This document shows, piece after piece, positions 22,290 through 63,847 of a stretch of 64,000 bases of DNA. The notes beneath the pieces were generated by a model. The model was not told the DNA's origin, made no database searches, and was given only the letters and a program-made list of their open reading frames with translations. Location of the stretch: assembly GCA_902610815.1 (NCBI GenBank), contig CACLXG010000001.1, positions 76,775 to 140,774 of the forward strand, read 5' to 3'. Within the stretch, counting starts at the first letter, position 1. Every line of letters begins with the position of its first letter. Position numbers and translations under genes: made by a program. This DNA comes from an uncultured Candidatus Actinomarina sp. Its GTDB lineage: Bacteria > Actinomycetota > Acidimicrobiia > Actinomarinales > Actinomarinaceae.

Positions 22290-22700
22290 TTACTCGAAAT
22301 CTTCGTCTTTTAGATTAAACATTACTTCCTTTTTCGGTTTTATTACCAATACAATTCTTTCGGTTTGTATTGGAAATGGATAAGGTTTCTTCCAATATTT
22401 TTGTGATAATTTATCAATATTATCTCTCGCATCTTGTCCAGTAATTTCTCCGATTACTTCACCTCTTATTTCAACGAATTTAAATGGGTCATCGTGCTTC
22501 CAAATCATAACTGTGACTCTGGGATCTTTTAAAATATTCTTATATTTGAATCTATGTATCTCTGTATTGATCAAGATATTTTCACCATCTGTATCAACCC
22601 ACATCACATGTGTTTGAGGAACACCATCCTTAAATAAAGTTGTTAACGCTGCATAATTCGGTCCAGATGCCATTTGAATTGTTTTATTGTCTAACCTCAT
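22290..22700 (-). CDS. PPOX-class (pyridoxamine-5-phosphate-oxidase-like) probable F420-dependent enzyme
   Basis: 136 aa split-barrel protein; the TTLFKDGVPQTHVMWV... pattern matches the PPOX class. Confidence 0.55.
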   Translation of the reverse strand: MRLDNKTIQMASGPNYAALTTLFKDGVPQTHVMWVDTDGENILINTEIHRFKYKNILKDPRVTVMIWKHDDPFKFVEIRGEVIGEITGQDARDNIDKLSQKYWKKPYPFPIQTERIVLVIKPKKEVMFNLKDEDFE

Positions 22701-22717
22701 CTGTTAAATTATAGTTT

Positions 22718-23182
22718 ATGAAAGTTGTTTTGCAGAGAGTTAAAAGTGCTTACGTAAAAGTTGATTCAGACGTTATTTCAGAAATTGATAATGGTTATTT
22801 ACTTTTATGGGGTATTGAAGATGAAGATTCTGAAGTTGAAAGTGAAATTTTGATAAATAAAATTTTAAATTTCAGAGTTTTTTCTGACGAAAATTTGAAA
22901 ATGAATAAATCAATAATAGATATTTCAGGAAAGATACTAATTGTTAGTCAATTTACATTAGCTGGAAAATTTCTAAAAGGAAACAGGCCTTCGTTTGTAA
23001 ATGCAAAATCTCCAGAAATAGCTGAAAAGATGATTTTAAAAATTGTTGAAGAATTTTCTAAGCATGTAACTGTAAAAACTGGAAGCTTTGGAGCCATGAT
23101 GGATGTAGGTTTAGTCAATGATGGACCGGCAACTTTTGTATTAACTGCTAGAAATGGGCAATTAATTGATCAAGCAGACTGA
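22718..23182 (+). CDS. dtd: D-aminoacyl-tRNA deacylase
   Basis: SQFTL motif, 154 aa. Confidence 0.85.
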   Translation: MKVVLQRVKSAYVKVDSDVISEIDNGYLLLWGIEDEDSEVESEILINKILNFRVFSDENLKMNKSIIDISGKILIVSQFTLAGKFLKGNRPSFVNAKSPEIAEKMILKIVEEFSKHVTVKTGSFGAMMDVGLVNDGPATFVLTARNGQLIDQAD

Positions 23183-23598
23183 AGTTTAGTTTTTTTTCCT
23201 ATTTCTTTTTTATCAAGTTGCTTATCAAGATAATATTCTTCTCCAGCCCATAAATGTAATCCAAGCCCAAGTTTCATTGCACATCTCTTGAAAGAATCCG
23301 ATTCTGCATGTTTTGCATTGCTTCCATCATTTTTTTGATCATGTTCTACGTCGCCGATAGATGTTACGGTGACTAATTTACCATCAATTTCTACGGTTAA
23401 TTTACCAAAGCAACCAACGACTGCTCCAGTAGATTCTTGTCTAATCAACTCAACTACTTCCCAATCAAAAGGGCCACAAACTTCTAAAAGACGCTGGGTA
23501 ATCACTGGGTGTGGAACATAATTTCCAAATTTACCCTTCGGTGCTTTTTTGATCCAATCTTTTGGAAATTTTCTTGATAGTTCATACAATTGTTTCAT
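23170..23598 (-). CDS. Rad52/Rad22-Sak-family single-strand annealing protein (short, about 142 aa)
   Basis: YVPHPVITQRLLEVCGPFDWEVVE, TSIGDVEH and ESDSFKRCAMKLGLGLHLW match the Rad52 N-domain signature (x-DA-x-KR-x-x-x-fG-x-G-x-x-LY-like). The start at M13 (ATG 23598-23596) overlaps the upstream TGA as ATGA. Confidence 0.6.
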   Translation of the reverse strand: MKQLYELSRKFPKDWIKKAPKGKFGNYVPHPVITQRLLEVCGPFDWEVVELIRQESTGAVVGCFGKLTVEIDGKLVTVTSIGDVEHDQKNDGSNAKHAESDSFKRCAMKLGLGLHLWAGEEYYLDKQLDKKEIGKKTKLQSA

Positions 23599-24116
23599 TT
23601 TCTTCTCTCCATTTCTTTTAAACCTTTTGCCCACACCGGAGCAGTATCGTTACTTGTTTTAATAACTTGTAATTTAGGCTCTTCATCCCAAACTTTTTCT
23701 ATAAAAGTATCTCTTGCTAATTGTTTATCCATTCCTTTTTTTTCTGCAACTGCATCTAAGCCCCTCAATTTAGGGACAAAAGTACTTCCACAAAGTGCTA
23801 CCAAATTTTCAATATCATCTTCTGAGAGTTTTTTGCTTGTAGCCCAATCAATTAATCTTTTTAAATCTATTGTTTTTGATTTATAACTTTTTGAGTAATT
23901 AAATACAGTATCAGATATTTTTATAGCACCTTTTTCCTGAACATCGAGAGCAATTTTATTATCAACAAATTTATTTATTTTATAAGTACTATCTTTTGCT
24001 TCTAGAGAAACTCCTCTTGCAATAAACAATTCTTTTGGCTCTTCAATAGATTGCAATTCAGTATTTTCTAAAGTTTCTTCACCACTTTTAGCGATATCCC
24101 AGATCAAATCTTTCAT
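23595..24116 (-). CDS. Hypothetical protein, translationally coupled partner of the Rad52-like gene
   Basis: 173 aa. Strong RBS taggagaataaATG. No recognisable motifs. Confidence 0.5.
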   Translation of the reverse strand: MKDLIWDIAKSGEETLENTELQSIEEPKELFIARGVSLEAKDSTYKINKFVDNKIALDVQEKGAIKISDTVFNYSKSYKSKTIDLKRLIDWATSKKLSEDDIENLVALCGSTFVPKLRGLDAVAEKKGMDKQLARDTFIEKVWDEEPKLQVIKTSNDTAPVWAKGLKEMERRK

Positions 24117-24328
24117 TTATTCTCCTATAACTTATGCTGCTTCATCATATATTCTATGACAATCACATCGGTCATTATGGTCTAAACAAATAAAATTTGC
24201 TTTTATCCCAGATCTTTCAAGTAATTTAAGTATTTCTTTTTCTTTCATAATTTATAATTTAGAAATGCAGTGTGACAAAAAAAATAAAATAACAATCTTT
24301 CTAACAAAAACCTATATATGATGAGCTA

Positions 24329-25594
24329 GTGATAGTTGAAAATAATCTCTTTGACTCACATATGTATAAAGAAGTCATCAGGCAGTATGATGAAGTTTCT
24401 GATTTAATCAATCTTGATTCAAATATAAGAGAAAGACTTAAATTACCTCAAAGGTCTCTTGTAGTGACTTTTCCATTTAGAAGAGATGAATATGATGAAG
24501 TTGAGACAGTAACTGGATATAGAGTTCAACATGTTTTATCAATGGGCCCTACTAAGGGTGGTATTCGGTACGCACCAGATGTAAATTTAGGTGAAGTTAC
24601 AGCACTAGCTATTCTTATGTCTTGGAAGTCTGCAATTGTAGGATTACCTTATGGTGGAGCAAAAGGTGGAGTTGCGATAGATCCCAATCCTCTCACTCGA
24701 GCTGAAAAGCAACGCGTTACTAGAAGGTATACGGCTGAATTATTACCAATTATTGGTGTTGACAAAGATATACCTGCTCCTGATTTAGGCACAGATGAGC
24801 AAACAATGGCATGGATTATGGACACATACAGTAACTTTGTTGGCTCACCTCAGCCTGGGATAGTAACTGGAAAACCTGTTTCTCTTGGTGGGTCAATAAC
24901 TAGACGGGAATCAACTGGCAGAGGTGCAGTAGCTGTTGGCCAGGCCGCTATGGAGAAAATAGGTAAAAATTATAAAGATTCAAGAGTTGTAATTCAAGGA
25001 TTTGGAAATGTTGGAAGGTATGCAGCCCTAGATTCATATGAAAGGGGTGCAAAAGTAATTGCAGTAAATGATTTGGGCGGTGCAGTGATGAATAAAGATG
25101 GCCTCAATATCCCAGAACTTTTTAAACACATCGCTAAAAGTCCATCAGTCAAAGGCTTCTCAGGGGGAGAAGACTTTGATGGGGAAATCCTTGAAACTGA
25201 TTGTGATGTCTTAATACCTGCAGCTGTAGGAGGAGTTATTACCTCTAGTAACGCTGAAAAAATTAAAGCAAATGTATTAATTGAAGGTGCTAACTCTCCG
25301 ACAACTTTAAATGCAGATAAAATCTTAAGAGATAATGGCGTAATGATAATTCCAGATATCCTAGCTAATGCCGGCGGTATAACTGCAAGCTACTTTGAAT
25401 GGGTGCAAAATACACAAAATTATTTATGGAAAGAAACTGAGTTATTTGAGAAATTAATTGATGTAATGATTACTTCTTTTGAAGAAGTTTGGACTATCTC
25501 TCAGAAACAAAATTGTGATTTAAGAACAGCTGCACTAATAAAAGGAATAAAGAGAGTAGCCGCAGCAAAACTAACTAGAGGCTTATTTCCGTAA
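24329..25594 (+). CDS. gdhA: NAD(P)-dependent glutamate dehydrogenase
   Basis: GPTKGGIRY, PYGGAKGG and a GFGNVG Rossmann motif. Start is GTG at 24329 or ATG at 24362. Confidence 0.85.
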   Translation: MIVENNLFDSHMYKEVIRQYDEVSDLINLDSNIRERLKLPQRSLVVTFPFRRDEYDEVETVTGYRVQHVLSMGPTKGGIRYAPDVNLGEVTALAILMSWKSAIVGLPYGGAKGGVAIDPNPLTRAEKQRVTRRYTAELLPIIGVDKDIPAPDLGTDEQTMAWIMDTYSNFVGSPQPGIVTGKPVSLGGSITRRESTGRGAVAVGQAAMEKIGKNYKDSRVVIQGFGNVGRYAALDSYERGAKVIAVNDLGGAVMNKDGLNIPELFKHIAKSPSVKGFSGGEDFDGEILETDCDVLIPAAVGGVITSSNAEKIKANVLIEGANSPTTLNADKILRDNGVMIIPDILANAGGITASYFEWVQNTQNYLWKETELFEKLIDVMITSFEEVWTISQKQNCDLRTAALIKGIKRVAAAKLTRGLFP

Positions 25595-26554
25595 AAGTTT
25601 TTCTATTTCTGCTTGGATATTATTTTTTTGATCCTCTAATTTTGATATCTGAATTTTAATTTGCTCTTTGTCTTTGCTTCCAATTGGACTTTCTTTTGGA
25701 ACTTCATTTTCGTTTTTGAACATATCTAGTACCTCAATTTCTTCTTCTAAATCTGAAATGGATTCATTTATCATTCTTAGTTCTTCGGTATTAGGAGGGT
25801 TGTCGTTAAATACCGGACAAATTGGTTTATAGTAACACCAGTCACAGAGTGTATTTTTAATTGCTGGAAAATCATCACTCTCATAAGCTTTTTTGATATT
25901 TTCCCAGATTTCTAAAATTTCTTTTTTCGCTTCTATTAAGTCTTCTTCATTGATTTTTAATGTATGAATAGTTGAGTTTTTGAGATATATTAATTTTAAT
26001 TCTGCAGGCATTTCTCCAAGTTCCTCATTTATCAATAAAGCATATAGTTTTAGGGCAAAAAATCTTGGTTCTTTATATTTAGCCATTGGAGCTTTACCAC
26101 TTTTGTAATCAACAATTATTAGTTCACCCTTTTGATTTCTATCCATTCTGTCGAGAATCCCTCTTAAATTTAAATCTTCTATACTTCCTCTAACCCATCG
26201 CTCTCTCTCAAGTGGATCAAAACTAGTAGGATCCTCAATAGTCATATAGTTATTGAGCAACTTTAGACCATCAACACCCCATTCTCTCTCTTCTTCTACA
26301 GTAGAAAAAAGATTATGATGTTCATCTGTGCCTCTTACTTTTGTCCAAGCTTCACGAAATAAATTATGGAGTTTTTCTATATTTCTTTCTTCTTTTGGTA
26401 AATCAAACAAGTCTTCGAGAGCTTGATGAACTGTTGTACCTTTAGCTTGCACTTCATTTGTTGGCTCTTTTAATTTATCTACATTTGCATATTTAAATTG
26501 CTTTGGACATGTTTTAAATTGAGATGCTCTAGAAGGAGATAAATTTTTAATCAT
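25583..26554 (-). CDS. Cas4/AddB-like PD-(D/E)XK nuclease with [4Fe-4S] Cys ligands and a C-terminal coiled-coil tail
   Basis: N-terminal LSPSRASQFKTCPKQFKY, GILDRMD, IVDYKSGK, and a C-terminal CDWCYYKPIC cluster, plus a ~70-aa acidic/Lys coiled-coil tail. Its stop overlaps the gdhA stop (convergent). Confidence 0.7.
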   Translation of the reverse strand: MIKNLSPSRASQFKTCPKQFKYANVDKLKEPTNEVQAKGTTVHQALEDLFDLPKEERNIEKLHNLFREAWTKVRGTDEHHNLFSTVEEEREWGVDGLKLLNNYMTIEDPTSFDPLERERWVRGSIEDLNLRGILDRMDRNQKGELIIVDYKSGKAPMAKYKEPRFFALKLYALLINEELGEMPAELKLIYLKNSTIHTLKINEEDLIEAKKEILEIWENIKKAYESDDFPAIKNTLCDWCYYKPICPVFNDNPPNTEELRMINESISDLEEEIEVLDMFKNENEVPKESPIGSKDKEQIKIQISKLEDQKNNIQAEIEKLLRK

Positions 26555-33527: not shown

Positions 33528-33977
33528 CTAAGACAAATTTAAAATTAATACAGGTATTTTTCGTTTTGTTCTTTGTTGGTAATTGGAATATCCACCTTTA
33601 TTCATGTAATCCATTTTTGACCACCAGTCTTCACGCTCTTCATCAAAGACTTCTTTAGCGACTGCAGTGTATTTCTTTCTTCCAATTTGAATTTCACATT
33701 TAGGGTTAGCTTTTAAATTATGATACCAGCCTGGATTAGTAGGACTTCCACCTTTAGATGCTACTAAACAAATTTCATTACCTTCTTTCATGAAAACAAG
33801 TACATTTTTTCTTAACAAATTAGTCTTAGCACCAGTTGAGAAAAGAATTAAACACGGTCTTCCCTGTAGAAATTTTCCTATTCTGCCATTTGAATAGATA
33901 TAAATATAATTGTGAAAAAACAAGAATGTAAAAATTAAATATCTTCTCATATATTTAACTTTATCTTTTTTCTCCAT
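33528..33977 (-). CDS. Deazaflavin-dependent nitroreductase-family protein (DDN / DUF385)
   Basis: VASKGGSPTNPGWYHNLKANP...YQQRTKRKIPVLIL matches the DDN family. The likely start is M10, overlapping the stop of the upstream photolyase-like gene. Confidence 0.7.
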   Translation of the reverse strand: MEKKDKVKYMRRYLIFTFLFFHNYIYIYSNGRIGKFLQGRPCLILFSTGAKTNLLRKNVLVFMKEGNEICLVASKGGSPTNPGWYHNLKANPKCEIQIGRKKYTAVAKEVFDEEREDWWSKMDYMNKGGYSNYQQRTKRKIPVLILNLS

Positions 33978-35146
33978 GAACTGAAACTTGTAGGGTAAAA
34001 ATTAATGGGATCTGCAAGTCGTAATGCCGGGAATTCTACAGATGGAATATTTCTTTCTGTAATTTTTTTGTATTTTGGTACTGGTGCAAATGTTGATGCA
34101 AAATTTTTATTTTGTAAATAATCATCTGGATTGGTTAAATGTACTTGCAGCTCCCTTTTGTTATTAATTTCTTTAAGGCAATCAAGTAAAAAATTAATTC
34201 TCTTTGTTGATAATTGCAATTTACTTAACAGCTTTATATCAAATATAAAAATTACTGGTAGTTCGTGATAATGAATCATTGCTGGATCATTGTCTCCGAT
34301 AGATTCACCTGTAATCCATACACAGGATGGTTTAGTACTATTATTTTCTCTTATGTTTTTTGGACCGAAAACTTTTTCTTCATCTATTTTAAAATCATTA
34401 TTTAATTTTTCAGAAATATTTGTTTGCGGCCATTCTTGAATTGGGCAGTCATATTTTAATTCACAATTATTACATAATTGGGGTGCTCTTTTTTCAACTT
34501 GGAATTTGGAAAATCCATATGGCTTTCCTGTTTGTGATCCCATGACCCAATGCCATCCTAACCTGTTTGCAAAACGAGACCCATCTAATAAATGTTGAAA
34601 CATATAGTCCTCATATTGATTCCAGTCGTTACCTACCCTTAAAGAATTATGAGATGCATACCACATTCTTGTCTGATTAACCATATAACCTGTTTTTTCC
34701 AATTCTTTTTCGATAGTTGATACACAATTCATATTTTTATAAATATCTGCATTCGATTGAGGTTTTTCTATTTTGTAATTTAGATATTTTCTTGATTTTT
34801 TACCAACTATTGCATATAAATGTCTTGCAAATTCTTGCCAAAGCAACTCATCTTGGAATTTAGTTCTATCTTTGTATTCAAATTTCTCAACTGCTTTCCA
34901 TACATCTGAAAGACTAAGTAAACCATGTCGTATATAGGGGGATAGATAAGATGAACCTCTGGAATCTTTGGGGTAAACGTTGTTTCTTTTCGTAGCATAC
35001 TTATTAATATTTAGCTGATTTAATGCATTATCTGCGTTTGATTGGCCACCAGACACAAATGGATAAGTGAAATCATCACAACAAAGGCCACTAAAATATT
35101 TTTGTATTATTTCTTTATTATCAAGTTGTAGATCAATTAAAGACAT
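33947..35146 (-). CDS. Photolyase/cryptochrome homologue with permuted domain order (FAD domain then alpha/beta antenna domain)
   Basis: N-terminal part carries SYLSPYIRHG, LLWQEFARHLY and RMWYASHNSLRVGNDW...GWHWVMG (FAD_binding_7-like). C-terminal part carries CVWITGESIGDNDPAM, LPVIFIFD and FYPTSFSSWRKK (photolyase N-domain-like). Confidence 0.7.
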   Translation of the reverse strand: MSLIDLQLDNKEIIQKYFSGLCCDDFTYPFVSGGQSNADNALNQLNINKYATKRNNVYPKDSRGSSYLSPYIRHGLLSLSDVWKAVEKFEYKDRTKFQDELLWQEFARHLYAIVGKKSRKYLNYKIEKPQSNADIYKNMNCVSTIEKELEKTGYMVNQTRMWYASHNSLRVGNDWNQYEDYMFQHLLDGSRFANRLGWHWVMGSQTGKPYGFSKFQVEKRAPQLCNNCELKYDCPIQEWPQTNISEKLNNDFKIDEEKVFGPKNIRENNSTKPSCVWITGESIGDNDPAMIHYHELPVIFIFDIKLLSKLQLSTKRINFLLDCLKEINNKRELQVHLTNPDDYLQNKNFASTFAPVPKYKKITERNIPSVEFPALRLADPINFYPTSFSSWRKKIKLNI

Positions 35147-35692: not shown

Positions 35693-37819
35693 TTGATTGT
35701 GGTTGAAAGAAGTTTAAGTTACTTAGATAATATAAAGTTAGATTCTTTAAAAGGATTTGGTGAGAAAAGATATTCAAATCTTAAAAAGAGTAATTTATCA
35801 TCCATTACCGATTTAATTAGATTTTATCCAAGAAAACACATTGATAGATCAAAAATAAAAACAATAAATCAAATTGATCAATCAGATATTGAAAAAGAAG
35901 TAACAATGATTGGTACGATCAGTAATGTTTCAGTATTTACAACTAAATCAAGATTAAGGATAACGACGCTTTCAATAAAAGACAGCACAGGCTTGGTAAA
36001 AGCAAAGTGGTTTGGACCTCAATATATAGAATCGAGATTTAAAGAGGGTGAAGATGTTGCTCTTTCTGGAAAGCCTGATATTAAAAAAACTGGATCAATA
36101 GAATTTAAAAATCCCACAATTGAAAAATTTGCTGATATAGATGAACTGAGCGAGACGGGATCTTTAATTCCTATATATCCAAAAGTTGATGGTGTATCTA
36201 GTGGTGTAATAAGAAAAGCAATAAAAGACGCATTGTCAATCATTGATACACCTAAAGAAGAGTTTGAACCTGGAATTGAAGACATGCTTACTAGTGAGGT
36301 TGTAGATAAAAATTCAATTTTTTCTAGAACTGAAAGTTTTAAATCAATTCATTTCCCTAAAACCATTGAAGAATTCCAAAAAGCAAGAGAAAGGCTTGCT
36401 CTTGATGAATTTATATATTTACGTTCTATATTTGAAAATTTAAAATCTGAATTTAAAAATAAAAACAAAGGGCCAAAATATATTTTTGAAAATTCATTAA
36501 TAGACACTTTTGTTGCAGACTTACCATTTCAACTCACAGAATCTCAAACAAAAGCCTATAAAGAGATTCTAGAAGATTTAAAAAATGATTATCCCATGAA
36601 AAGACTTCTTCAAGGCGATGTCGGCTCAGGAAAGACAGTTGTGGCTGCAATTTCTATATATGCTGTAATAAATTCCGGTTACCAAGTGGCACTAATGGCT
36701 CCAACGGAAGTATTGGCTGAACAACATTTAAATTCATTAAATGCATTTTTAAAAAATTCAGATGTAGAGGTTAATTTTCTTACTTCCTCTGTCAAAGATA
36801 GAAGCGAAGTAATGAATAATATATCTGATGGTAAGCCTGGATTATATATAGGTACTCATGCCTTAATTCAAGACAAAGTATTCTTTAGTAATTTAGGTCT
36901 CGTAATTATTGACGAGCAACAGAGATTTGGTGTTGATCAAAGAAAAAAATTAATATCAGATTCAGAAATAACTCCCGACCAACTTGTTATGACTGCAACT
37001 CCAATACCAAGAACTACTGCTCTATCTATATATGGTGACTTAGAGATATCTTCAATAAATGAATTACCTCCGGGCAGAAAGCCAATTGTTTCACATTTAT
37101 ATAGTGGTTTAAAAAAAGACAATGAGAAAGTTTTTGAAATGTGTTACAAACATTTAGATGATGATTCGCAAATATTTGTAGTTTGTCCCTATATAGAAGA
37201 GAGTGAGTCTTCTGATATACAGGCAGCAGAAAAAGTTTTTTTGGAATATTCTAAAAAATTTTCGGATTACAAGGTTGTTCTTCTACATGGAAAGATGTCT
37301 TATGAGGAAAAAGAAAATATAATGCGATCAATGCAGGATGGCTCTATAGACATACTTGTCTCTACTGTAGTTATAGAGGTTGGTATAGACATTCCAAATG
37401 CCTCTCTTATGATTATTGAAAGTGCAGAAAGATTTGGTCTTAATCAACTGCACCAGCTCAGAGGAAGAGTAGGTAGAGGAGAAAAACAATCAGAGTGCAT
37501 TTTTCATATTACAAATAAAAAATCTCTCAGCACTATCAGCGAAGAAGGTGTTAAAAGATTAGAGGCTATATCAACAATGAGTGATGGATTTAAATTATCA
37601 GAGATAGATTTAGAAATTCGGGGTGAAGGAAAGGTAACCGGTAAAAACCAATCAGGTAGGTCTGACTTAAAAATTGCTGATTTACGTTTTGATTATGGTT
37701 TACTTATTCAATCCAAAGATATTTATGATGATATCAAAAGTTCAAATTCATCGAATAAAGTATTTGAAGAAGCAAAATTATTATTTCCTAATTATTTTCA
37801 AGCAGACGGGACTACATGA
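35693..37819 (+). CDS. recG: ATP-dependent DNA helicase RecG
   Basis: Wedge/OB N-domain, Walker A GDVGSGKT, DEQQRFGV, and motif VI QLRGRVGRG. Confidence 0.85.
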   Translation: MIVVERSLSYLDNIKLDSLKGFGEKRYSNLKKSNLSSITDLIRFYPRKHIDRSKIKTINQIDQSDIEKEVTMIGTISNVSVFTTKSRLRITTLSIKDSTGLVKAKWFGPQYIESRFKEGEDVALSGKPDIKKTGSIEFKNPTIEKFADIDELSETGSLIPIYPKVDGVSSGVIRKAIKDALSIIDTPKEEFEPGIEDMLTSEVVDKNSIFSRTESFKSIHFPKTIEEFQKARERLALDEFIYLRSIFENLKSEFKNKNKGPKYIFENSLIDTFVADLPFQLTESQTKAYKEILEDLKNDYPMKRLLQGDVGSGKTVVAAISIYAVINSGYQVALMAPTEVLAEQHLNSLNAFLKNSDVEVNFLTSSVKDRSEVMNNISDGKPGLYIGTHALIQDKVFFSNLGLVIIDEQQRFGVDQRKKLISDSEITPDQLVMTATPIPRTTALSIYGDLEISSINELPPGRKPIVSHLYSGLKKDNEKVFEMCYKHLDDDSQIFVVCPYIEESESSDIQAAEKVFLEYSKKFSDYKVVLLHGKMSYEEKENIMRSMQDGSIDILVSTVVIEVGIDIPNASLMIIESAERFGLNQLHQLRGRVGRGEKQSECIFHITNKKSLSTISEEGVKRLEAISTMSDGFKLSEIDLEIRGEGKVTGKNQSGRSDLKIADLRFDYGLLIQSKDIYDDIKSSNSSNKVFEEAKLLFPNYFQADGTT

Positions 37820-43432: not shown

Positions 43433-46078
43433 ATGTATTTAAAATCATTAGACATTAATGGGTTCAAGTCTTTTGCAGAAAAGACAACTATTCAATTATC
43501 AGACGAAGTAAATGTTATTGTTGGACCTAATGGTTCTGGAAAGTCAAATGTAGTAGATGCAATATCTTGGGTATTGGGAACTCAAAGCCCCGCCACTCTT
43601 AGAACTAACAAGATGGAAGATGTGATATTTGCTGGTACTGAAAAATTATCAGAAAAAGGATTTGCTGAGGTCTATTTAAATTTCGAAGTTGATGAACAAA
43701 AATTTAACGGAAATAGTGAAATTTCCATAGGAAGAAAACTGTTTAGAGATGGTACTTCTGAATATTTTATGAATGGCTTAAATTGCAGATTGTTAGATAT
43801 TCAAGAGTTTTTAAGTGACGTAGGTATAGGTAAACAGCAACACATTATAATTTCACAAGGTCAAATCGCTGAAATATTGAATTCAAAGCCTGAGGATCAC
43901 AGATTAACAATTGAAGAAGCTTCAGGAATTTTACCTTTAAGATCGAAAAAAGAAAAAGCGCTTAAGAGAATTGAATCTGGTGATAAAGAAATCAAAAGAG
44001 CTAAAGATGTTTTACGTGAGATTAGAAAACAACTGAAGCCTCTGCAAGAACAAGCTGAGCAGGCAAGGCTTCATGAAGATGTAACAAATCAATTAAAAGA
44101 TAGAAACATAAAACTACACACTTTGCTTTATAGAAAATTTCAAAATGAATATGAAGATTTAAAAATTAAAGAAAATGAACTTTCAAATTCAATTGATTCT
44201 ATTGAGTTAAAAGTTGAAAATTTGAAAAAAGAAAAACTAAGAATAAATAATGAACTTGGCGATGGAGTTTCCATTGGCTCTACATTTAAAGAACATTCTT
44301 CAAAAATCAACAATGTTACTGAACAATTAAGATCAATTGCTCAAGTGGCAAATGAAAGAAAAGATAATTTAGAACGTGAAGATTTTAGGAATATAGAGCA
44401 AATTAATAAAATTTCAAAAAAAATAGATCAAAATTCAGATCAGATAAATATGCTTTCTAATCAGTTGGTGTCTAAACAATTTTCTTTAAAGAATCTTCAA
44501 TCAACTTATGATGTTTTAAAAACTCAACTGGAGTCTGTTATTAAGAAGTCTTCTGCATCAAAAGAAGTAAATGAAGCTTTGCTAGAAAATGAAATTAAGT
44601 CATTACAAAAGTACATATCTGAAACATCACAAGATTTAGGAGTACTAAATCTTGAACTTAGTAAGTGGGAGAGCGATGTTAAAAATTCAGAAGACCTTTT
44701 ACAGAAATTTAATAATGATATTAAAAGCAATGAATTTAATATTTCTTCAAAAGATGAATATGTTACTTTTCATCAAAATATCTTAAATAGGGAATTTAAC
44801 TCATCAAAAGAAAAAATAGATCAAATAACTTCTAAGAATGAATCTATGGAAAGAGAATTAAGTCAAAAAGAAGTATTGCTTTCTGGAATTAATCAAAATG
44901 AAGAGTTTAAAATTGATATAAATAATCAGAAGATTGATTTAGAAAAACAGATTGAAAATTTAGAAAATCAAATAAGTTCAATTTCTAACCAATTAGTTAC
45001 TTCTCACGAAAGAATCAAAAATCTTACGGAACAAAATAATGAATTTCTTAATGAAAAAGAAAAAATTTCATTTACTAAAAATGCCACTTCAAAATCAGAT
45101 TTAGAAAAGCTTGTTTCTGAAATAAAAGACTTCATTACATTTACAAATAAAACTAGTAATTTATTAGCTCAAAAATCTGAAGAGTTTGATGATAAGTATG
45201 GAAATACTAATAAAAAAATTCAGAAAATTGATTCAGAAATTGAACAGTTAAATAAAAATTATTTTGATATAAAAGAGGAAAAAACCGCAGTAGTAATTAA
45301 ACTATCTGAAAATCAAGTTTCTACTTCATCTCATTTTTCTACATTAAAAAATATTTATGGTTTGAATGACGAAAGTCTTGTTCATGTCCAAACTGATGGA
45401 TTGATTCAACATACTTTAGAAAATGAAATAAAAAATTATGAGATTCAATTAGAAAATATAGGTACAGTAAATTATTTAGCTAAAGAAGATTTTGAAACTT
45501 TAAATTCAAGACATGAAGAAATAACAGGAAACATAGAAGACTTAAATTTAGCCAAAAAAGAATTGAATTCACACATTAAAGAAATTGAAAATGAAATATC
45601 ATTTAGAATTGAGTCTTCATTTAATTCAATTTCAGTACATTTTTCTGAAATATTTGAAACTTTGTTCCCTGGAGGAAAAGGATCTTTGTCATTCACAGAT
45701 AAAGAAAATATTTTAGAAACTGGAATTGATATTTCGGTACAACCTAAAGGTAAAAAGGTTAAAAAATTAAGTTTATTATCTGGTGGAGAAAGATCTTTAG
45801 CTGCAATAGCATTCTTGTTCTCTATATTTAAGTCATTCCCAAGCCCTTTTTATATACTTGATGAAGTTGAAGCTGCACTAGATGATGCTAATTTACATAG
45901 AATGATTAACTTATTAAAGCATGTAAAGGGAGATGCTCAATATATTATTGTTACACACCAACAGCAGACTATGCATGCTGGTGATGTTTTATATGGGGTT
46001 ACTATGGAGCCAGGTTCTGGATCAAGAGTGTTTACAAAAACTAAAGCAGATTTTGAAGAGTTGATAAACAAATCATGA
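43433..46078 (+). CDS. smc: Chromosome segregation protein SMC (short form, 881 aa)
   Basis: N-terminal Walker A GPNGSGKSN, C-terminal signature LSGGERSLAAIAF and Walker B YILDEVEAALD. The long middle region is low-complexity coiled coil with no obvious hinge motif. Confidence 0.75.
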   Translation: MYLKSLDINGFKSFAEKTTIQLSDEVNVIVGPNGSGKSNVVDAISWVLGTQSPATLRTNKMEDVIFAGTEKLSEKGFAEVYLNFEVDEQKFNGNSEISIGRKLFRDGTSEYFMNGLNCRLLDIQEFLSDVGIGKQQHIIISQGQIAEILNSKPEDHRLTIEEASGILPLRSKKEKALKRIESGDKEIKRAKDVLREIRKQLKPLQEQAEQARLHEDVTNQLKDRNIKLHTLLYRKFQNEYEDLKIKENELSNSIDSIELKVENLKKEKLRINNELGDGVSIGSTFKEHSSKINNVTEQLRSIAQVANERKDNLEREDFRNIEQINKISKKIDQNSDQINMLSNQLVSKQFSLKNLQSTYDVLKTQLESVIKKSSASKEVNEALLENEIKSLQKYISETSQDLGVLNLELSKWESDVKNSEDLLQKFNNDIKSNEFNISSKDEYVTFHQNILNREFNSSKEKIDQITSKNESMERELSQKEVLLSGINQNEEFKIDINNQKIDLEKQIENLENQISSISNQLVTSHERIKNLTEQNNEFLNEKEKISFTKNATSKSDLEKLVSEIKDFITFTNKTSNLLAQKSEEFDDKYGNTNKKIQKIDSEIEQLNKNYFDIKEEKTAVVIKLSENQVSTSSHFSTLKNIYGLNDESLVHVQTDGLIQHTLENEIKNYEIQLENIGTVNYLAKEDFETLNSRHEEITGNIEDLNLAKKELNSHIKEIENEISFRIESSFNSISVHFSEIFETLFPGGKGSLSFTDKENILETGIDISVQPKGKKVKKLSLLSGGERSLAAIAFLFSIFKSFPSPFYILDEVEAALDDANLHRMINLLKHVKGDAQYIIVTHQQQTMHAGDVLYGVTMEPGSGSRVFTKTKADFEELINKS

Positions 46079-56316: not shown

Positions 56317-58141
56317 CATTTCTTTTCTTCGAATCAGACCATGTGATAACGACAATGAAATATATTTAAATTCAAGAAAAAAAGAGGGAACTTCTGCATT
56401 CTTAATAAAAAGTGATGTGTCAGTAAATACAGATAATTTACATAATAAAGATTTTCAAACAGTATCAAAGGATATCACCATAAATTCAGACGCATGGATT
56501 GTTACTGATGAAAACTGGAAGAAATTTAAATCTGTTCATCCAAAAAGATTGATTTACATTTTTAAAAATAATATTGAAATCGCATTAGAAGTTATCGATA
56601 GACTAAAGCCACACACTATTTTAATTTCTACTAATTCAGATTTACAATTCCTTAAATCTATCAACTCAAAAACAAGTTTTATAACATCGACATATGTTGA
56701 AACAATTGAGGAAGCAATTGAATTTGCTAATGCAGGAGTTTCAGATTTACTCCTCAGGGACTGGAGTTCCGAACAGATATTAGAACTTCAAAATCTAGAA
56801 GGACTAAATTTCTATGAACGAACTTTACTTTCTCCAGTATTTTCTATTGATGAAGCAAGAGAAGAATTTGATAAAGAAAGATTTTTTAGATTCTTAAAAA
56901 CTAGAAATATCCGAGGTTTTAGAAGAGAAGAGACAAGTTGGTTTCCTGGTAGTGGAAAAAATATTCCAAATTTAAATAATTTTGTCTTTAACAACAAAAG
57001 CCAAATTAACCATTCTGAATTTGACTCAATATTGAAAAGGGTATTAGATGGATATCAAATTAATAATGATGATCTGAAAGTATTGTTTAATACCGCAGGA
57101 GAAAAAATAAATGATATTGCAAATGTTGCTAATGAGTTAAATTTTTTAAAAAACGGAAATAATGTTTCTTATGTAAAGAATAGAAATATTAATTATACAA
57201 ATCAATGCTATTACAAATGTGGTTTCTGTGGATTTTCTAAAGGTCCTAATAGTTTAAATTTAAAAGAAAAACCATACAGCATTGATATACAAGAAGTAGT
57301 TGAAAGAACTGTCGAAGCATATGAAATGGGTGCATCAGAAGTGTGTTTACAAGGCGGCATTCATCCTGACTATACGGGAGAGTTTTATTTAAAGATGGTA
57401 GAAGATATAAAAGCTTCTGTTCCGGAAATGCATATTCACGGTTTCACTCCTTTAGAAATTTGGCAAGGAGCAGAGACTATTGGTTTGAATGTTGAAGAGT
57501 ACTTAAGTCTGTTAAAAAAAGCTGGGCTAAACACACTCCCCGGTACTGCAGCTGAAATATTAGACGATAGAGTTAGAAAATATCTTTGCCCTGATAAAAT
57601 AACTTCTTCACAATGGGCATATGTCATGGAAGTAGCTCATAACTTAGGGATAAAATCTACAGCAACAATTATGTTTGGTCATATTGATGATATAGATTCA
57701 TGGGTTAATCATTTTTCATTAATTAAAAATGTTCAAAGCAAAACAAATGGATTTACTGAAGTTGTACCTCTTCCTTTTGTTCATATGGGTTCTCCTATTT
57801 ACTTACAAGGTAAAAGTATGCCAGGACCTACTTGGGATGAGGTAGTTCTTATTCACTCATTAGCACGAATTTATTTTGTAAATTCAATAGACAACATTCA
57901 AGCAAGCTGGGTGAAATTGGGTCATGATGGAGCAGGGAAACTACTTCATGCTGGTGTTAATGATTTAGGTGGTACTTTGATCAATGAAAACATTAGCAGA
58001 GCTTCAGGAGCAGATCATGGGCAAGAAACAACTGAAGATCAATTTATTCAAATAATTGAGTCTGAAAATAAAAATCCAATTTTGAGAAATACTCTATATA
58101 CAAAATTCACTGAAACAAAAAATACTTTAGAAAAAAGATGA
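56306..58141 (+). CDS. cofH: FO synthase subunit 2 (radical SAM) with a ~230-aa N-terminal extension
   Basis: ATG at 56306 overlaps the cofG TAA by 11 nt. The CofH-like region with CYYKCGFCGF starts at about residue 235. The preceding region is uncharacterised. Confidence 0.7.
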   Translation: MNNNISFLRIRPCDNDNEIYLNSRKKEGTSAFLIKSDVSVNTDNLHNKDFQTVSKDITINSDAWIVTDENWKKFKSVHPKRLIYIFKNNIEIALEVIDRLKPHTILISTNSDLQFLKSINSKTSFITSTYVETIEEAIEFANAGVSDLLLRDWSSEQILELQNLEGLNFYERTLLSPVFSIDEAREEFDKERFFRFLKTRNIRGFRREETSWFPGSGKNIPNLNNFVFNNKSQINHSEFDSILKRVLDGYQINNDDLKVLFNTAGEKINDIANVANELNFLKNGNNVSYVKNRNINYTNQCYYKCGFCGFSKGPNSLNLKEKPYSIDIQEVVERTVEAYEMGASEVCLQGGIHPDYTGEFYLKMVEDIKASVPEMHIHGFTPLEIWQGAETIGLNVEEYLSLLKKAGLNTLPGTAAEILDDRVRKYLCPDKITSSQWAYVMEVAHNLGIKSTATIMFGHIDDIDSWVNHFSLIKNVQSKTNGFTEVVPLPFVHMGSPIYLQGKSMPGPTWDEVVLIHSLARIYFVNSIDNIQASWVKLGHDGAGKLLHAGVNDLGGTLINENISRASGADHGQETTEDQFIQIIESENKNPILRNTLYTKFTETKNTLEKR

Positions 58142-58773
58142 ATTCTTACAATGTAATAACATTATTTCCAAATCTAATTGAAGAATGGAAAAATACCGGG
58201 ATTATTAATCAAGCATTAAAAAATAATTTAGTAGCTATAAATTCAACAAACCTAAGAGATTTTGGCATAGGAACATATAAACAAGTTGATGATGCTCCAT
58301 ATGGCGGTGGGCCAGGAATGGTTTTGATGCCAGAACCATTAGACAAAGCTATAACTTCCAGCAAGGCAGATATTAATGTTTTCCTGACTCCATCAGGTCA
58401 GCAATTAAATGAAAACCTTATAAGTGAATTACTTGAATATAAGTCAATTAATCTGGTGTGTGGTAGATACGAAGGATTTGATCAAAGAATTTTAGAAATT
58501 CATTCTGATTATGAAATTTCAATTGGTCAAGCTGTTGTTTCTGGTGGAGAAGTACCAGCTTTGTATTTATTAGAAGCATTGATTAGGAAAATCCCAGATG
58601 TTTTAGGAAATCCTGAATCACTAATAAGTGAAACATTTACAGATAACAAAATTGATTATCCAGTCTATACAAGACCTGAAATCTTTAAAAATAAGGAAGT
58701 TCCAGAGGTACTTTTGTCTGGAAATCATCAAAAAATAGATGAATGGAAAAAGAATAATTTAAAAGACATATAA
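58138..58773 (+). CDS. trmD: tRNA (guanine37-N1)-methyltransferase
   Basis: ITLFPNLIE N-terminus and SPOUT fold pattern. Confidence 0.85.
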   Translation: MNSYNVITLFPNLIEEWKNTGIINQALKNNLVAINSTNLRDFGIGTYKQVDDAPYGGGPGMVLMPEPLDKAITSSKADINVFLTPSGQQLNENLISELLEYKSINLVCGRYEGFDQRILEIHSDYEISIGQAVVSGGEVPALYLLEALIRKIPDVLGNPESLISETFTDNKIDYPVYTRPEIFKNKEVPEVLLSGNHQKIDEWKKNNLKDI

Positions 58774-59164: not shown

Positions 59165-59752
59165 ATTATAAAAAATTTTTTTAAATCACTACTTATAATT
59201 TTTGTAGCTATTGTTGCAGCGACATTAGTTAGAACTTTTCTTATACAAATTTACTTCATTCCATCATCTTCTATGGAGCCAACCCTAGAAGTTAATGACA
59301 GAGTTTTAGTAATAAAGAATACTTTCATAGAAACAGAGATATCAACTGATGATATTGTTGTCTTTTATGGCCCTCAAACAAAGTTTGACAAAAATTATTA
59401 TGATCAATTTATAGAGTCTTTACAGATTTGGAAATTGACCACTGATCAGACTTATTTAAATACTGCATTAATTAAACGAGTTGTGGGCACCGGTGGTGAT
59501 GAAGTAGTTATTAAACAATCCGGTGAAGTGTTTGTAAATAACAATAGATTTTTAGTCCTTAACATTGAAGAAGGTAGATACTTCAAAGACCTAACATACA
59601 TTGTCCCTGATGGTGAGATATTTGTATTAGGTGATAACAGAATAAATAGTCAAGACTCTAGATACATCGGAACAATACCTTACGAAAATATTGTTGGAAA
59701 AGCTTACTATGTTATTTACCCATTTGAAAACTTTAGAAATATAAATGATTGA
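59165..59752 (+). CDS. lepB: Signal peptidase I (start codon non-canonical or uncertain)
   Basis: The TM anchor and the catalytic-Ser box (LLIIFVAIVAATLVRTFLIQIYFIPSSSMEPTL) lie upstream of the first ATG (59273). The only in-frame candidate starts are ATT/ATA at 59165/59168. The frame is continuous with rplS except for one TAA. Confidence 0.65.
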   Translation: MIKNFFKSLLIIFVAIVAATLVRTFLIQIYFIPSSSMEPTLEVNDRVLVIKNTFIETEISTDDIVVFYGPQTKFDKNYYDQFIESLQIWKLTTDQTYLNTALIKRVVGTGGDEVVIKQSGEVFVNNNRFLVLNIEEGRYFKDLTYIVPDGEIFVLGDNRINSQDSRYIGTIPYENIVGKAYYVIYPFENFRNIND

Positions 59753-60332
59753 AGATAAAGTTTGGTCAGAAAATCCAAGTAAATACATTATAGGAGCAGA
59801 TGAAGTTGGTAGAGGTTCCTTTGCTGGTCCAATATGTGCTGCAGCAGTGAAAATTAATTATTCACATTTAGAACTGCTAGCTAATGTAAAAGACTCAAAA
59901 AAACTTAGTGCAAAAAAAAGAGAAGAAATATTTTTAATTGTTCAAGAAAATAACATTGAGTATTCATTTAATGAATCATCAAACAACTTTATTGATCAAT
60001 TTGGAATCAAAAACGCTAATGAAAAAGTATTAACTGATTCAATCTCAGATATCTACACTGGCAATGAAATAGTATATGTTGATCATTTTAAAATTAATGA
60101 TTTCAAATCTATCTCTGTGGTACGTGGAGAAGATAATTGCAGAGCAATAGCTTTAGCAAGTATTGTAGCAAAAGTGCTCAGAGATAATTTAATGATTAAA
60201 TTTTCAGAAAAATATCCTGAATATTCATTTGAAAAGAATAAAGGCTATGGAACAAAAGATCACAGAGAGGCTATTTCAAAATATGGTTTATCTAATATTC
60301 ACAGAAAATCTTTTAGCTTAAAGCCCATATAA
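59745..60332 (+). CDS. rnhB: Ribonuclease HII
   Basis: IIGADEVGRGSFAGPICAAAV. Confidence 0.8.
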   Translation: MIEDKVWSENPSKYIIGADEVGRGSFAGPICAAAVKINYSHLELLANVKDSKKLSAKKREEIFLIVQENNIEYSFNESSNNFIDQFGIKNANEKVLTDSISDIYTGNEIVYVDHFKINDFKSISVVRGEDNCRAIALASIVAKVLRDNLMIKFSEKYPEYSFEKNKGYGTKDHREAISKYGLSNIHRKSFSLKPI

Positions 60333-62247: not shown

Positions 62248-63003
62248 ATGAAAATAAAAAATCTACTTAAACCAGATAATTGGTGGATTCTTATTCTAAG
62301 TGGAGTTATAGCTTATATGCTATTCATGATCTATTCGGAACCTGAATACAACAAAGCTTTTAATTTTATACTTCCTGGACTTACAATTACTTTTCTTTCA
62401 ACTTTTATATCATTCATAATTGCTTTGTTTCTTGGATTAATTTCTGGAATTGGAAGGATATCTAAAAATAAATTTGCACGTACAATTTCAAGAACATACA
62501 TCGAATTTATACGTGGAGTTCCCGTTCTTATACTTATATTTACAATTGCTTTCGTAGTGGTCGTTAGAGCTGCTGAATTTTTTAACATTAATAATGGTAA
62601 TGTGCCAATGTTGGTTAGAGCAATAATTGCACTTTCAGTATTTTACGGTGCATATATAGCAGAAGTATTTAGAGCTGGAATTGAATCTGTTCCTGTAGGT
62701 CAAAGAGAGGGTGGTGCATCACTAGGTCTATCTGATAGACAAGTAATGAGACATATAGTTTTGCCTCAAGCTTTTCGTAATATGCTTCCTGCACTCGGAA
62801 ATGATTTTATTTCTATGATGAAAGATTCCTCACTGTTATCAGTATTAGCAGTAGAAGACCTAACCTATAGAGGCAGATTGTATTCAGGAAGTACATTTAG
62901 GTTTGCAGAAACTTATCTTGTTCTTACTGTTATGTATTTAATTATTACACTCATCCTTTCTGGATTACAAAGAAGACTTGAGAAAAGACTTGAAGCTAGA
63001 TAA
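62248..63003 (+). CDS. Polar amino-acid ABC transporter permease
   Basis: Probable ATG at 62248 (MKIKNLLKPDNWW...). The ORF-track start at 62221 lies inside the hairpin. The EAA-like region GASLGLSDRQVMRHIVLPQA is present. Confidence 0.7.
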   Translation: MKIKNLLKPDNWWILILSGVIAYMLFMIYSEPEYNKAFNFILPGLTITFLSTFISFIIALFLGLISGIGRISKNKFARTISRTYIEFIRGVPVLILIFTIAFVVVVRAAEFFNINNGNVPMLVRAIIALSVFYGAYIAEVFRAGIESVPVGQREGGASLGLSDRQVMRHIVLPQAFRNMLPALGNDFISMMKDSSLLSVLAVEDLTYRGRLYSGSTFRFAETYLVLTVMYLIITLILSGLQRRLEKRLEAR

Positions 63004-63847
63004 TAGAAGCAATCAAGAAGAAATTCTAAATCAATATTTAAATACACTTGAAAAAATTAAAAATTATTCGCAAAACACAATTAAGTCATACAAAAATGAC
63101 ATTACTCAGTATTTGAATGAAGAGAACAATCTTGGAGAATTTTCAAATTTTTTAAAAATCTGTTCTAAAAAAAATTACTCAAAATCTACTATTAACAGAA
63201 AAATTACATCTATTAGGTCTTTTTTGTTTTGGAGTGCAGAAAATGATTATTTTGAAAGAGATTTAATAAAACCGGTTACAAGTTTAAAAACAGATAAAAA
63301 ACTTCCAAATGTCTTAACAGCAAATTATATTAATGAACTACTTGATTCTTTACCTGTAAGTAACAATAAAGAGATAAGAGACAAAGCCATATTAGAACTA
63401 ATGTATTCTTCTGGTCTTCGAGTTAGTGAAGTTAGCAATCTTATGATTAAAGATATTAGAAGCAATAAATCTATTAAAGTTTTAGGGAAAGGAAGTAAGG
63501 AGAGAGTTTTACCATTAACTGATCGTGCATTTAATAGTATTAATAACTATTTAAAAATTGCTAGAGAAATATTTGCTAATGAAAAATCTGGTCAATTTTT
63601 ATTTTTAGGTATAAGGGGCGGTAAATTAAGTGATAGAGAAATAAGAAGAATTGTAAAGCTAAGAGTTGGAACTTTTCCACACAGCTTAAGACACACTTTT
63701 GCAACACATCTTTTAGACGGGGGTGCAGATTTGCGAATAGTTCAGGAGCTACTTGGTCACAATGACCCAAATACAACACAGATATATACACATGTTTCAA
63801 AAAAACAATTGAAGAAAAAATACAAACAATCTCACCCAAGGGGTTGA
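62978..63847 (+). CDS. xerC: Tyrosine site-specific recombinase XerC/XerD
   Basis: C-terminal LRHTFATHLLDGGADLRIVQELLGH...Y. Housekeeping position upstream of rpsB. Exact start uncertain (TTG). Confidence 0.75.
   Translation: MRKDLKLDNRSNQEEILNQYLNTLEKIKNYSQNTIKSYKNDITQYLNEENNLGEFSNFLKICSKKNYSKSTINRKITSIRSFLFWSAENDYFERDLIKPVTSLKTDKKLPNVLTANYINELLDSLPVSNNKEIRDKAILELMYSSGLRVSEVSNLMIKDIRSNKSIKVLGKGSKERVLPLTDRAFNSINNYLKIAREIFANEKSGQFLFLGIRGGKLSDREIRRIVKLRVGTFPHSLRHTFATHLLDGGADLRIVQELLGHNDPNTTQIYTHVSKKQLKKKYKQSHPRG

Follow-up and report, generated by a model that had tools for sequence, protein, structure and literature searches.

A 64,000-nucleotide stretch of the genome of an uncultured Candidatus Actinomarina species (contig CACLXG010000001.1), referred to below as the window, contains three small genes in tandem on the minus strand between dtd and gdhA. 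These genes encode a 38-residue micro-protein (p38), a 173-residue protein (p173) and a 142-residue single-strand annealing protein (SSAP) of the Rad52 type. The explanation that we favor, with a confidence slightly above even, is that p38-p173-SSAP is a three-gene operon derived from a phage module, which has become a fixed and vertically inherited core locus of the Actinomarinales and serves damage-inducible repair by single-strand annealing. The SSAP itself is of a known kind. What is new is the partner family, the micro-protein, the fixation in a core genome and the PafBC-type promoter.

When annealing proteins of the Rad52 type occur in bacteria, they are taken for phage cargo, with Deinococcus DdrA as the exception usually cited. 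No paper linking Actinomarina with Rad52 was found in the literature collection searched, and two Actinomarina genome papers make no mention of the locus.

Organization of the Operon

The first gene, p38, occupies positions 24132..24248 of the window, 15 nt upstream of the p173 open reading frame (ORF) at 23595..24116, and the SSAP gene at 23170..23598 is third. The p173 ORF is preceded by a Shine-Dalgarno sequence, read from the sequence as AGGAGA at 24121-24126, which lies 4 nt before the ATG. The p173 stop and the SSAP start form an ATGA overlap (23595..23598), in which the SSAP ATG (23598-23596) has TG in common with the p173 stop TGA (23597-23595), an arrangement of translational coupling. 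The junction is similarly tight in other lineages, where it reads GTGA, ATGA or TAA-N-ATG. The longest form of the SSAP ORF begins at a GTG and has an upstream extension to 154 residues, and this form is adopted by some gene callers.

The trio is flanked by two plus-strand genes, dtd (22718..23182) on the SSAP side and gdhA (24329..25594) on the p38 side. The SSAP and dtd genes are convergent, and their 3′ ends overlap by 13 bp (23170-23182). This overlap is kept in close relatives (e.g., L001), and no terminator-like hairpin was seen between the two genes. A first-pass annotation of the same DNA had described two ORFs with an ATGA overlap, a strong ribosome-binding site on the 173-residue ORF and a position between dtd and gdhA, all of which hold. 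It had also taken the locus for a two-gene module, which has to be revised in view of p38.

The Rad52-Type Annealing Protein

Membership of the 142-residue protein in the Rad52 family, as the first-pass annotation had proposed, is solid. The protein matches the Pfam model PF04098 (Rad52_Rad22) over residues 6-121 of 142 with 25.6 bits (cut-off 20.3; E 1.3e-5), and its homologues also carry a precomputed PF04098 match. Its best match among the PHROG families is PHROG 3290, “single strand annealing protein” (E 2.3e-12). An AlphaFold model made from an alignment with 27 homologues has a pLDDT (predicted local distance difference test) of 88 and contains a helix at residues 30-41, strands at 45-53, 60-71 and 74-83, and a helix at 91-109, which together constitute a β-β-β-α core with a flanking helix. 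Foldseek matches this model to yeast Mgm101 (E 2.7e-6; template modeling (TM) score 0.61) and to human RAD52 (E 9e-6), with a probability of 1.0. The family signature SD(A/S)FKRC...GLGLHLW is conserved.

Compared to Rad52 and Mgm101 (PF04098; PDB 5JRB, 8BJM and 9YI9), the Actinomarina SSAP scores above the cut-off of the hidden Markov model (HMM), and its core superposes with E values of 1e-5 to 1e-6 and a TM score of about 0.6. However, it consists of 142 residues with the N-terminal annealing domain only, lacks the C-terminal region that binds RPA or Rad51, is of bacterial or phage origin, and is 14-19% identical in sequence. Among phage SSAPs, which include Sak, Sak3/DUF1071 (PDB 8QE9), Erf and Marvin gp63 (cluster S), those with about 30% identity to it are Marvin gp63 and proteins of Polaribacter phages. 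A KRC...GLGL(H/Y)L(W/Y) signature is held in common with DUF1071, although, taken alone, the match to the DUF1071 structure in the PDB falls short of significance (E 0.22). Phage SSAPs of these kinds are found in replication and recombination modules beside an exonuclease and a single-stranded DNA-binding protein (SSB), whereas the Actinomarina SSAP is encoded by a core gene that is fixed in the chromosomes of a free-living order, and has p173 as its partner instead of an exonuclease.

Fixation in the Actinomarinales

In a scan of one genome per species, 24 genomes of Ca. Actinomarina or other Actinomarinales were found to encode a p173 that is 73-99% identical to that of the window. All of these loci, together with four metagenome contigs encoding an identical p173, have the same gene order. 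The 31 Actinomarinales loci that were fetched (L001-L029, L069 and L071), which represent several genus-level lineages, all have the trio in the interval from gdhA to dtd. Even the more distant lineages L069 (a 155-kb contig) and L071 have the same locus, with SSAPs that are 75-80% identical and GdhA proteins that are 74-80% identical to those of the window. Moreover, a metagenome scan with the SSAP alignment recovered 80 loci, 51 of which are chromosomal as judged by gdhA or dtd flanks, and a p173-family gene is located directly upstream of the SSAP gene in every chromosomal metagenome locus with an intact upstream side (47/47).

The collinear gene order is ino1 - Cas4-like nuclease - gdhA - p38 - p173 - Rad52-like - dtd - PNPOx-like - 3HCDH. 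Gene order is reported to be poorly conserved between Actinomarina species (bioRxiv 10.64898/2026.04.03.716425); despite this, every locus recovered, including those of other genera, is collinear from ino1 to 3HCDH with the trio in between.

The ratio of nonsynonymous to synonymous substitution rates (dN/dS) was estimated for the window against six diverged orthologous loci, at which dS is saturated. The values are 0.02-0.07 for the SSAP and 0.05-0.13 for p173, compared to 0.02-0.07 for gdhA and 0.09-0.26 for dtd. The reading frames of the trio are intact in every locus recovered, and its G+C content of 0.33 equals the local average. There is no tRNA gene in the window, and the trio is flanked by short chance repeats only, with no repeats resembling phage attachment (att) sites. 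Pfam annotation of about 6 kb on each side shows metabolic neighbors and no phage genes beside the trio; beyond these flanks, phage genes were sought only by BLAST against a 446-kb mini-library of phage loci.

Because the synteny is invariant, the purifying selection is like that on the neighbors, the G+C content is native, and there are no att repeats, tRNA genes or phage flanks, it is excluded that the trio is the edge of a prophage or a recent island. This was the check that the first-pass annotation had put forward for the pair, and the G+C uniformity and the conservation of the pair across genera bear on it in the same sense. A related explanation is that the operon is the decaying remnant of a cryptic prophage and has no cellular function. 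Its genes do have phage relatives, but with intact frames, dN/dS values of 0.02-0.13, the same position across genera, a conserved promoter, native base composition, and no att repeats or phage neighbors, such a remnant is scarcely credible.

A statement that the 64 kb contain no integrase, capsid or other phage genes, also made in the first pass, is not strictly correct as to the integrase: a single tyrosine recombinase is encoded at 62978..63847 (plus strand, 289 residues), 39 kb from the trio. This protein has Pfam Phage_integrase and N-terminal SAM-like domains. Its gene adjoins an ABC transporter, rnhB (59745-60332), lepB (59273-59752) and trmD (58138-58773), a setting that we take, from actinobacterial gene order, to be the housekeeping context of XerC. 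The recombinase looks like XerC and not like a phage integrase.

A Probable Promoter of the PafBC Type

The 60 nt upstream of p38 were aligned for 77 Actinomarinales loci, which gave 55 distinct sequences. All 55 contain the motif TGTC-N12-TANNNT, with 6-8 nt between its end and the p38 ATG; in 43 sequences, this distance is 7 nt. In the window, this promoter of the PafBC or RecA-NDp (RecA-independent promoter) type, TGTCACACTGCATTTCTAAATT, is located at 24256..24277 on the minus strand and comprises a -26 element and a -10 element. The end of the -10 element is 7 nt from the p38 ATG, and p38 lacks a ribosome-binding site. The GTC triplet and the -10 element are invariant and there is no -35 element at the canonical distance, while the spacer and the surroundings of the motif have diverged beyond recognition between genera. 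The window contains 11 copies of TGTC-N12-TANNNT, and only the p38 copy precedes a gene start.

The published consensus of PafBC (RecA-NDp) promoters is tGTCgg(N10)tA(N3)T, in which GTC is a base-specific contact of PafB and stands in for the -35 element (PMC8635444). That GTC is read by PafB in place of a -35 element has also been described elsewhere (PMC6789036). The operon promoter has exactly the spacing and the invariant core of this consensus. From this likeness, the operon is probably damage-inducible. In addition, the position of the -10 element and the lack of a ribosome-binding site imply that the transcript would be leaderless and start at the p38 ATG. A sigma-70 promoter, TTGTCA-18-TAAATT, was also considered and rejected, as its -10 element, which is not conserved, directly adjoins the ATG; the TANNNT element, which is conserved, is 7 nt upstream of the ATG and only 11-12 nt from TGTC.

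A 31-nt inverted repeat (24210-24240 and 24427-24457) with 84% complementary arms 186 nt apart was observed at this site. Its arms are located in the 5′ parts of p38 and gdhA, and thus the divergent promoter region is bracketed.

To our knowledge, no Rad52-type gene has been described as a member of a PafBC regulon. The nearest domesticated precedent is Deinococcus DdrA, a chromosomal Rad52-family protein that is induced by DNA damage and protects 3′ single-stranded DNA (ssDNA) ends. DdrA is a single gene that belongs to the regulon of DdrO and the radiation/desiccation response motif (RDRM) of Deinococcus, whereas the Actinomarina SSAP is encoded in a three-gene operon with a PafBC-type promoter. 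No DdrA turned up among the sequence matches of the SSAP, a result obtained with no dedicated test of orthology. In concept, the favored repair module is comparable to DdrA, and the conserved promoter lends support to the option of a domesticated, DdrA-like repair module that was raised in the first pass.

The p173 Partner Family

The AlphaFold model of p173 has a pLDDT of 93. The predicted fold opens with two short helices at the N terminus and a helix of 36 residues, continues with a three-stranded β-meander and a four-helix bundle, and closes with a β-hairpin and a conserved C-terminal tail, “AP.WA..L..GERR”. The family has few members. When 1.84 billion representative sequences were searched with a profile, 49 clusters (at 50% identity) were returned, about 13 of them distant members of full length. 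The 173-residue ORF had been described as free of recognizable motifs, and this is borne out. At E<=10, p173 and 10 distant members have no match in Pfam, including PF05565, PF07352 and the nuclease HMMs, and p173 matches nothing in PHROG, NCBIfam, PADLOC or the sequences of the PDB. A tblastn search of 50,697 GenBank phages with p173 and two high-GC relatives found no match, nor did scans of IMG/VR with the high-GC relatives as query. A Foldseek search of the PDB with the p173 model likewise returned nothing (best E 1.3), with no structure of Gam, Ku or a solved PD-(D/E)XK nuclease among the matches.

The only residues that are nearly invariant in the family are L30, G63, A124, G128, T137, F138 and P160. 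The alignment contains no D...(D/E)xK or QxxxY pattern and no invariant acidic or lysine residues, and the family is mildly acidic, with an isoelectric point of about 5-6. Because of this lack of invariant acidic or lysine residues, the absence of a nuclease HMM match and the acidic isoelectric point, we conclude that p173 would be a non-enzymatic binding protein.

The position of p173 recalls a class of phage proteins. In phages of Firmicutes, genes for Mu-Gam-like, Gp157, DUF1351 or DUF2483 proteins are found directly upstream of erf or sak4 and ssb, and an analogous function has been inferred by the authors of that work (PMC8093625). This arrangement was confirmed in Sfi21, phiNIH1.1, BK5-T, A2 and others, and a swapped order was found in a Vibrio phage. 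The likeness between p173 and the Mu-Gam-like, Sipho_Gp157 (PF05565), DUF1351 and DUF2483 proteins comprises position, a tight or overlapping junction with the SSAP gene followed by an SSB gene, size and the occasional swap of order. However, no sequence or profile similarity was detected, the structural likeness is weak, and p173 has an extra four-helix bundle between its β elements. By gene position, then, p173 is an analogue of the Gam/Gp157 class.

A more specific version of an accessory role is that p173 is itself a Gam/Gp157-type end-protection protein or inhibitor of host nucleases, either as a very remote homologue or as an analogue, and binds or mimics DNA ends against RecBCD- or AdnAB-type nucleases during annealing. 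The slot of p173 is the one that these proteins occupy, upstream of and overlapping an SSAP gene that is followed by SSB (Sfi21 orf157-Sak4, phiNIH1.1, BK5-T and A2; PMC8093625), and Vibrio phage 1.148.O, where the order is swapped to SSAP-Gp157-SSB, parallels contig L068 described below. In size, p173 is similar to them (157-174 residues), and it has a long N-terminal helix followed by β strands. A match in BFVD to “Siphovirus Gp157” (E 0.07) and the acidity of the p173 family, which is like that of DNA mimics, point in the same direction. Nevertheless, neither PF05565 nor PF07352 is matched at E<=10 by the window protein or by 10 distant members, and no Gam or Ku structure is among the Foldseek matches in the PDB. 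When the p173 profile was compared by hhalign with profiles of Gp157 (9 sequences) and Gam (3 sequences), the E values were about 0.2; the power of this test is low, as the Gp157-versus-Gam control itself reaches only E 0.012. An inhibitor of nucleases encoded in the host's own core genome is also harder to rationalize, and overall we regard a Gam/Gp157-type identity as unlikely. A likeness between the p173 segment LRGLDAVAEKKGM and Mu Gam IRGMDAVMETLERLGL was considered and set aside; hhalign does select this segment, at E 0.1-0.26, which is not evidence.

The p38 Micro-Protein

The sequence of p38, MKEKEILKLLERSGIKANFICLDHNDRCDCHRIYDEAA, contains an invariant C-x2-H-x3-C-x-C-H motif and ends in a C-terminal AA. 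Every Actinomarinales lineage examined retains the ORF and this motif, even where identity falls to about 40%, and p38 has been annotated as a gene by metagenome annotators. Its dN/dS of 0.12-0.9 is noisy since the gene is short. No family match for p38 was found in Pfam, PHROG, NCBIfam or PADLOC. The retention of the Cys/His motif in every lineage suggests that p38 is a putative small zinc-binding peptide. No counterpart of p38 was found in the phage modules examined, and p38 may be a cellular addition that arrived with domestication.

Phage Relatives and the Origin of the Module

Two sets of marine phage contigs and two high-GC contigs carry relatives of p173. In the first set, termed group 2 (IMG/VR contigs L033, L034 and L047-L060, plus L030), a p173 of 40-46% identity is followed directly by an SSAP of 39-42% identity. 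The module has the order metallophosphatase exonuclease (phrog_284), a gene of 85-97 residues, p173, SSAP and SSB-like (phrog_378). L030 (PAEL01000130.1) is labelled “MAG: Gammaproteobacteria bacterium MED855”, but is a phage fragment with genes for a RepB-type primase, a metallophosphatase exonuclease, a p173-like protein, a Rad52-like protein, an SSB-like protein, a phrog_1501 protein and an acidic repeat protein; it was probably mis-binned in a metagenome-assembled genome (MAG). A conserved basic protein of 84-97 residues (“...KWV.LLSVK.KKRQKIYN.ASYF...”) was also observed, always between the exonuclease and p173 in group 2 (e.g., L030:5597-5890 and L047:3925-4179). This protein matches no PHROG family, and the chromosomal operon contains nothing equivalent to it.

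High-GC contig L068 has the reversed order, in which SSAP (phrog_3290) is followed by p173-like, VRR_NUC and replication initiator genes. Because the association of p173 with the SSAP survives this change of gene order, there is good genomic evidence for a functional link between the two, and p173 is by these genomic criteria an undescribed, phage-derived family that is genetically tied to the SSAP. The suggestion of a new SSAP-linked partner in the first pass is thus confirmed by a family that adjoins SSAP genes in chromosomes and phages alike. The same adjacency in marine and high-GC phage contigs indicates that the pair is by origin a phage recombination module and not a cellular invention.

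Other phages use the p173 slot differently. The closest non-chromosomal SSAPs, at 51-58% identity, are never paired with a p173; instead, a phrog_298 PD-(D/E)XK exonuclease is encoded at the upstream position or close to it. Sister SSAP clades with a PD-(D/E)XK exonuclease in this slot include L005, about 20 of 29 metagenome loci and mycobacteriophage Marvin, in which the gp62 exonuclease overlaps the gp63 SSAP. Since sister phage clades place an exonuclease there, p173 and the exonuclease are alternative occupants of one slot. Like Lambda Red and RecET, the pair is a two-component, translationally coupled module in which the upstream gene is the partner of the annealase, and the sister clades do have an exonuclease in that place; p173, however, has no nuclease motifs, and the metallophosphatase-type exonuclease of group 2 is separate, two genes upstream.

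These observations bear on the idea that p173 is a catalytically dead exonuclease, the remnant of a PD-(D/E)XK partner that was kept as an SSAP-binding scaffold. It has the same position as the phrog_298 exonuclease of L005, of about 20 metagenome loci and as Marvin gp62, and its topology (long helix, three-stranded meander, helices, strand) loosely recalls the PD-(D/E)XK core. RecB-like exonucleases from two phages, KellEzio of Arthrobacter (probability 1.0; TMq 0.48) and TIN4 of Tsukamurella, are among the BFVD matches, and there is a weak hhalign match inside the KellEzio PDDEXK domain (E 0.005 in a single comparison; probability 7%). However, no member of the p173 family has D...(D/E)xK or QxxxY, no PDDEXK HMM is matched, no solved PD-(D/E)XK nuclease is among the Foldseek matches in the PDB, and BLAST against the L005 exonuclease finds nothing. 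Moreover, the group-2 phages carry a separate exonuclease alongside p173. Taken together, descent from a dead exonuclease is quite improbable. A homology of p173 to the 246-residue gene upstream of the L005 SSAP, which is the closest phage SSAP, had also been considered; BLAST finds none, and that gene is the phrog_298 exonuclease.

Exchange Between Host and Phage

Group 3 consists of phages (IMG/VR contigs L035-L046, up to 85 kb) whose p173 is 61-70% identical to that of Actinomarina (e.g., L035:6081-6602). These phages also encode a terminase, a replication initiator, an SSB, a ParB, several DNA methyltransferases and a PAPS-reductase-like protein. On the group-3 contigs that were read on that side (L035, L036 and L039), there is a gene of about 300 residues on the opposite strand (L035:3186-4100; phrog_19042), and the match of the L035 protein to a Rad52-like profile is not significant (E 0.046 in a single comparison).

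Within the genus, p173 is 73-76% identical, which is above dtd at 62-63%. Between genera, it is 41-46% identical, which is below every neighboring gene. Because the group-3 copies (61-70%) are closer to the Actinomarina p173 than the chromosomal partners of the sister genera are, p173 must have passed between host and phage after the genera diverged, perhaps through capture by phages or through replacement in situ in the host. Exploitation of the host annealase by phages through p173 is compatible with these data, which do not constitute proof of it.

Such an exchange also invites a different explanation, namely that the operon is an anti-phage or phage-interference device against recombination-dependent replication, or that the phage p173 hijacks or neutralizes the host SSAP. 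In its favor, p173 appears to have been exchanged recently and alone, and between genera it diverges faster than every neighbor, as genes in an arms race also do. On the other hand, there is no PADLOC match and no toxin, nuclease or sensor component, the locus belongs to the conserved core genome and not to a hypervariable island, the within-genus dN/dS is low (0.05-0.13), and the promoter is of the DNA-damage type. We give this explanation only a small chance. A defense or anti-defense function, which was among the first-pass options, finds no support either, as none of p38, p173 and the SSAP has a PADLOC match.

Neighboring Genes

Beyond gdhA, the minus strand encodes a Cas4/AddB-like PDDEXK_1 protein at 25583..26554. 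It matches PDDEXK_1 with 117 bits, contains an N-terminal Cys and a C-terminal CxxCx5C, and scores below the Cas4 equivalog cut-off; in PADLOC it matches generic Cas4/DruK PD-(D/E)XK models only. The gene is syntenic in all Actinomarinales loci, with 61-98% identity, and shares 12 bp with the 3′ end of gdhA. This nuclease, which had been noted in the first pass as lying 2 kb away, is indeed present, but there is no evidence that ties it to the pair: gdhA lies between them on the other strand, and there is no PafBC-type motif upstream of the nuclease gene. No Rfam family was found within 22600-24600. Further genome-maintenance genes in the window encode a photolyase/cryptochrome-like FAD protein (33947-35146, minus strand), RecG (35693-37819, plus strand) and an SMC-family ATPase (43433-46078, plus strand); between the photolyase-like gene and RecG there is a gap of 546 nt.

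Proposed Mechanism and Significance

In the proposed mechanism, DNA damage, sensed as ssDNA, would activate a PafBC-like WYL regulator, which would recruit RNA polymerase to the -26/-10 promoter to produce a leaderless tricistronic mRNA. Translational coupling would then yield p173 and the SSAP in fixed proportion. The SSAP may oligomerize like Rad52 or Mgm101, bind ssDNA at resected breaks or gaps, and anneal complementary strands. The outcome would be RecA-independent repair by single-strand annealing in a 1-Mb genome with few repair pathways. In this scheme, p173 would be a non-enzymatic accessory subunit in the slot that is held elsewhere by exonucleases or Gam/Gp157-type proteins, and would most likely bind the SSAP, DNA ends or both, and thereby load, protect or restrain annealing.

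Several points weigh against this explanation. Ring formation and annealing by the SSAP are assumed from its family membership, and the roles considered for p173 (SSAP loader or regulator, Gam-like end protector, dead exonuclease) are candidates inferred from gene position. The BFVD matches of p173 are weak (TM 0.3-0.48) and are distributed among uncharacterized Caudovirales proteins, “Siphovirus Gp157” and two actinophage RecB-like exonucleases. There is no Rad52-like gene adjacent to p173 in the group-3 phages L035-L046, and in high-GC contig L066 the p173-like gene is located between a replication initiator and a NinG/HNH endonuclease, again with no adjacent Rad52-like gene; p173 is therefore encoded, and perhaps acts, apart from this SSAP in some phages. 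At the promoter, the “gg” that follows TGTC in the PafBC consensus is replaced by A/T-C/T, although this “gg” is conserved to 50% or less in the consensus itself. The window shows no enrichment of the bare motif (7 found compared to 5.7 expected), and because of this the weight of the PafBC motif lies in its positional conservation.

A more far-reaching proposal, which is tentative and well short of even confidence, is that the operon represents an unrecognized PafBC-controlled and RecA-independent annealing pathway for repair that arose through domestication of a phage module and is core to the whole order. In this pathway, p173, with a new fold, and p38 would be dedicated cofactors of the SSAP, and the marine phages that encode p173 only would commandeer or disable the host annealase.

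Ca. Actinomarina are tiny and are among the most numerous photoheterotrophs of the surface ocean, with streamlined 1-Mb genomes that have shed most dispensable functions. The presence of the SSAP as a strictly conserved core gene in such a genome argues for an essential role in genome maintenance. In addition, p173 is a concrete candidate for how minimal Rad52-like proteins get loaded or regulated, and the PafBC-type promoter provides a testable link between the LexA-independent damage response of Actinobacteria and single-strand annealing. Compact sets of an SSAP with its cofactors may also be of practical interest for recombineering in Actinobacteria.

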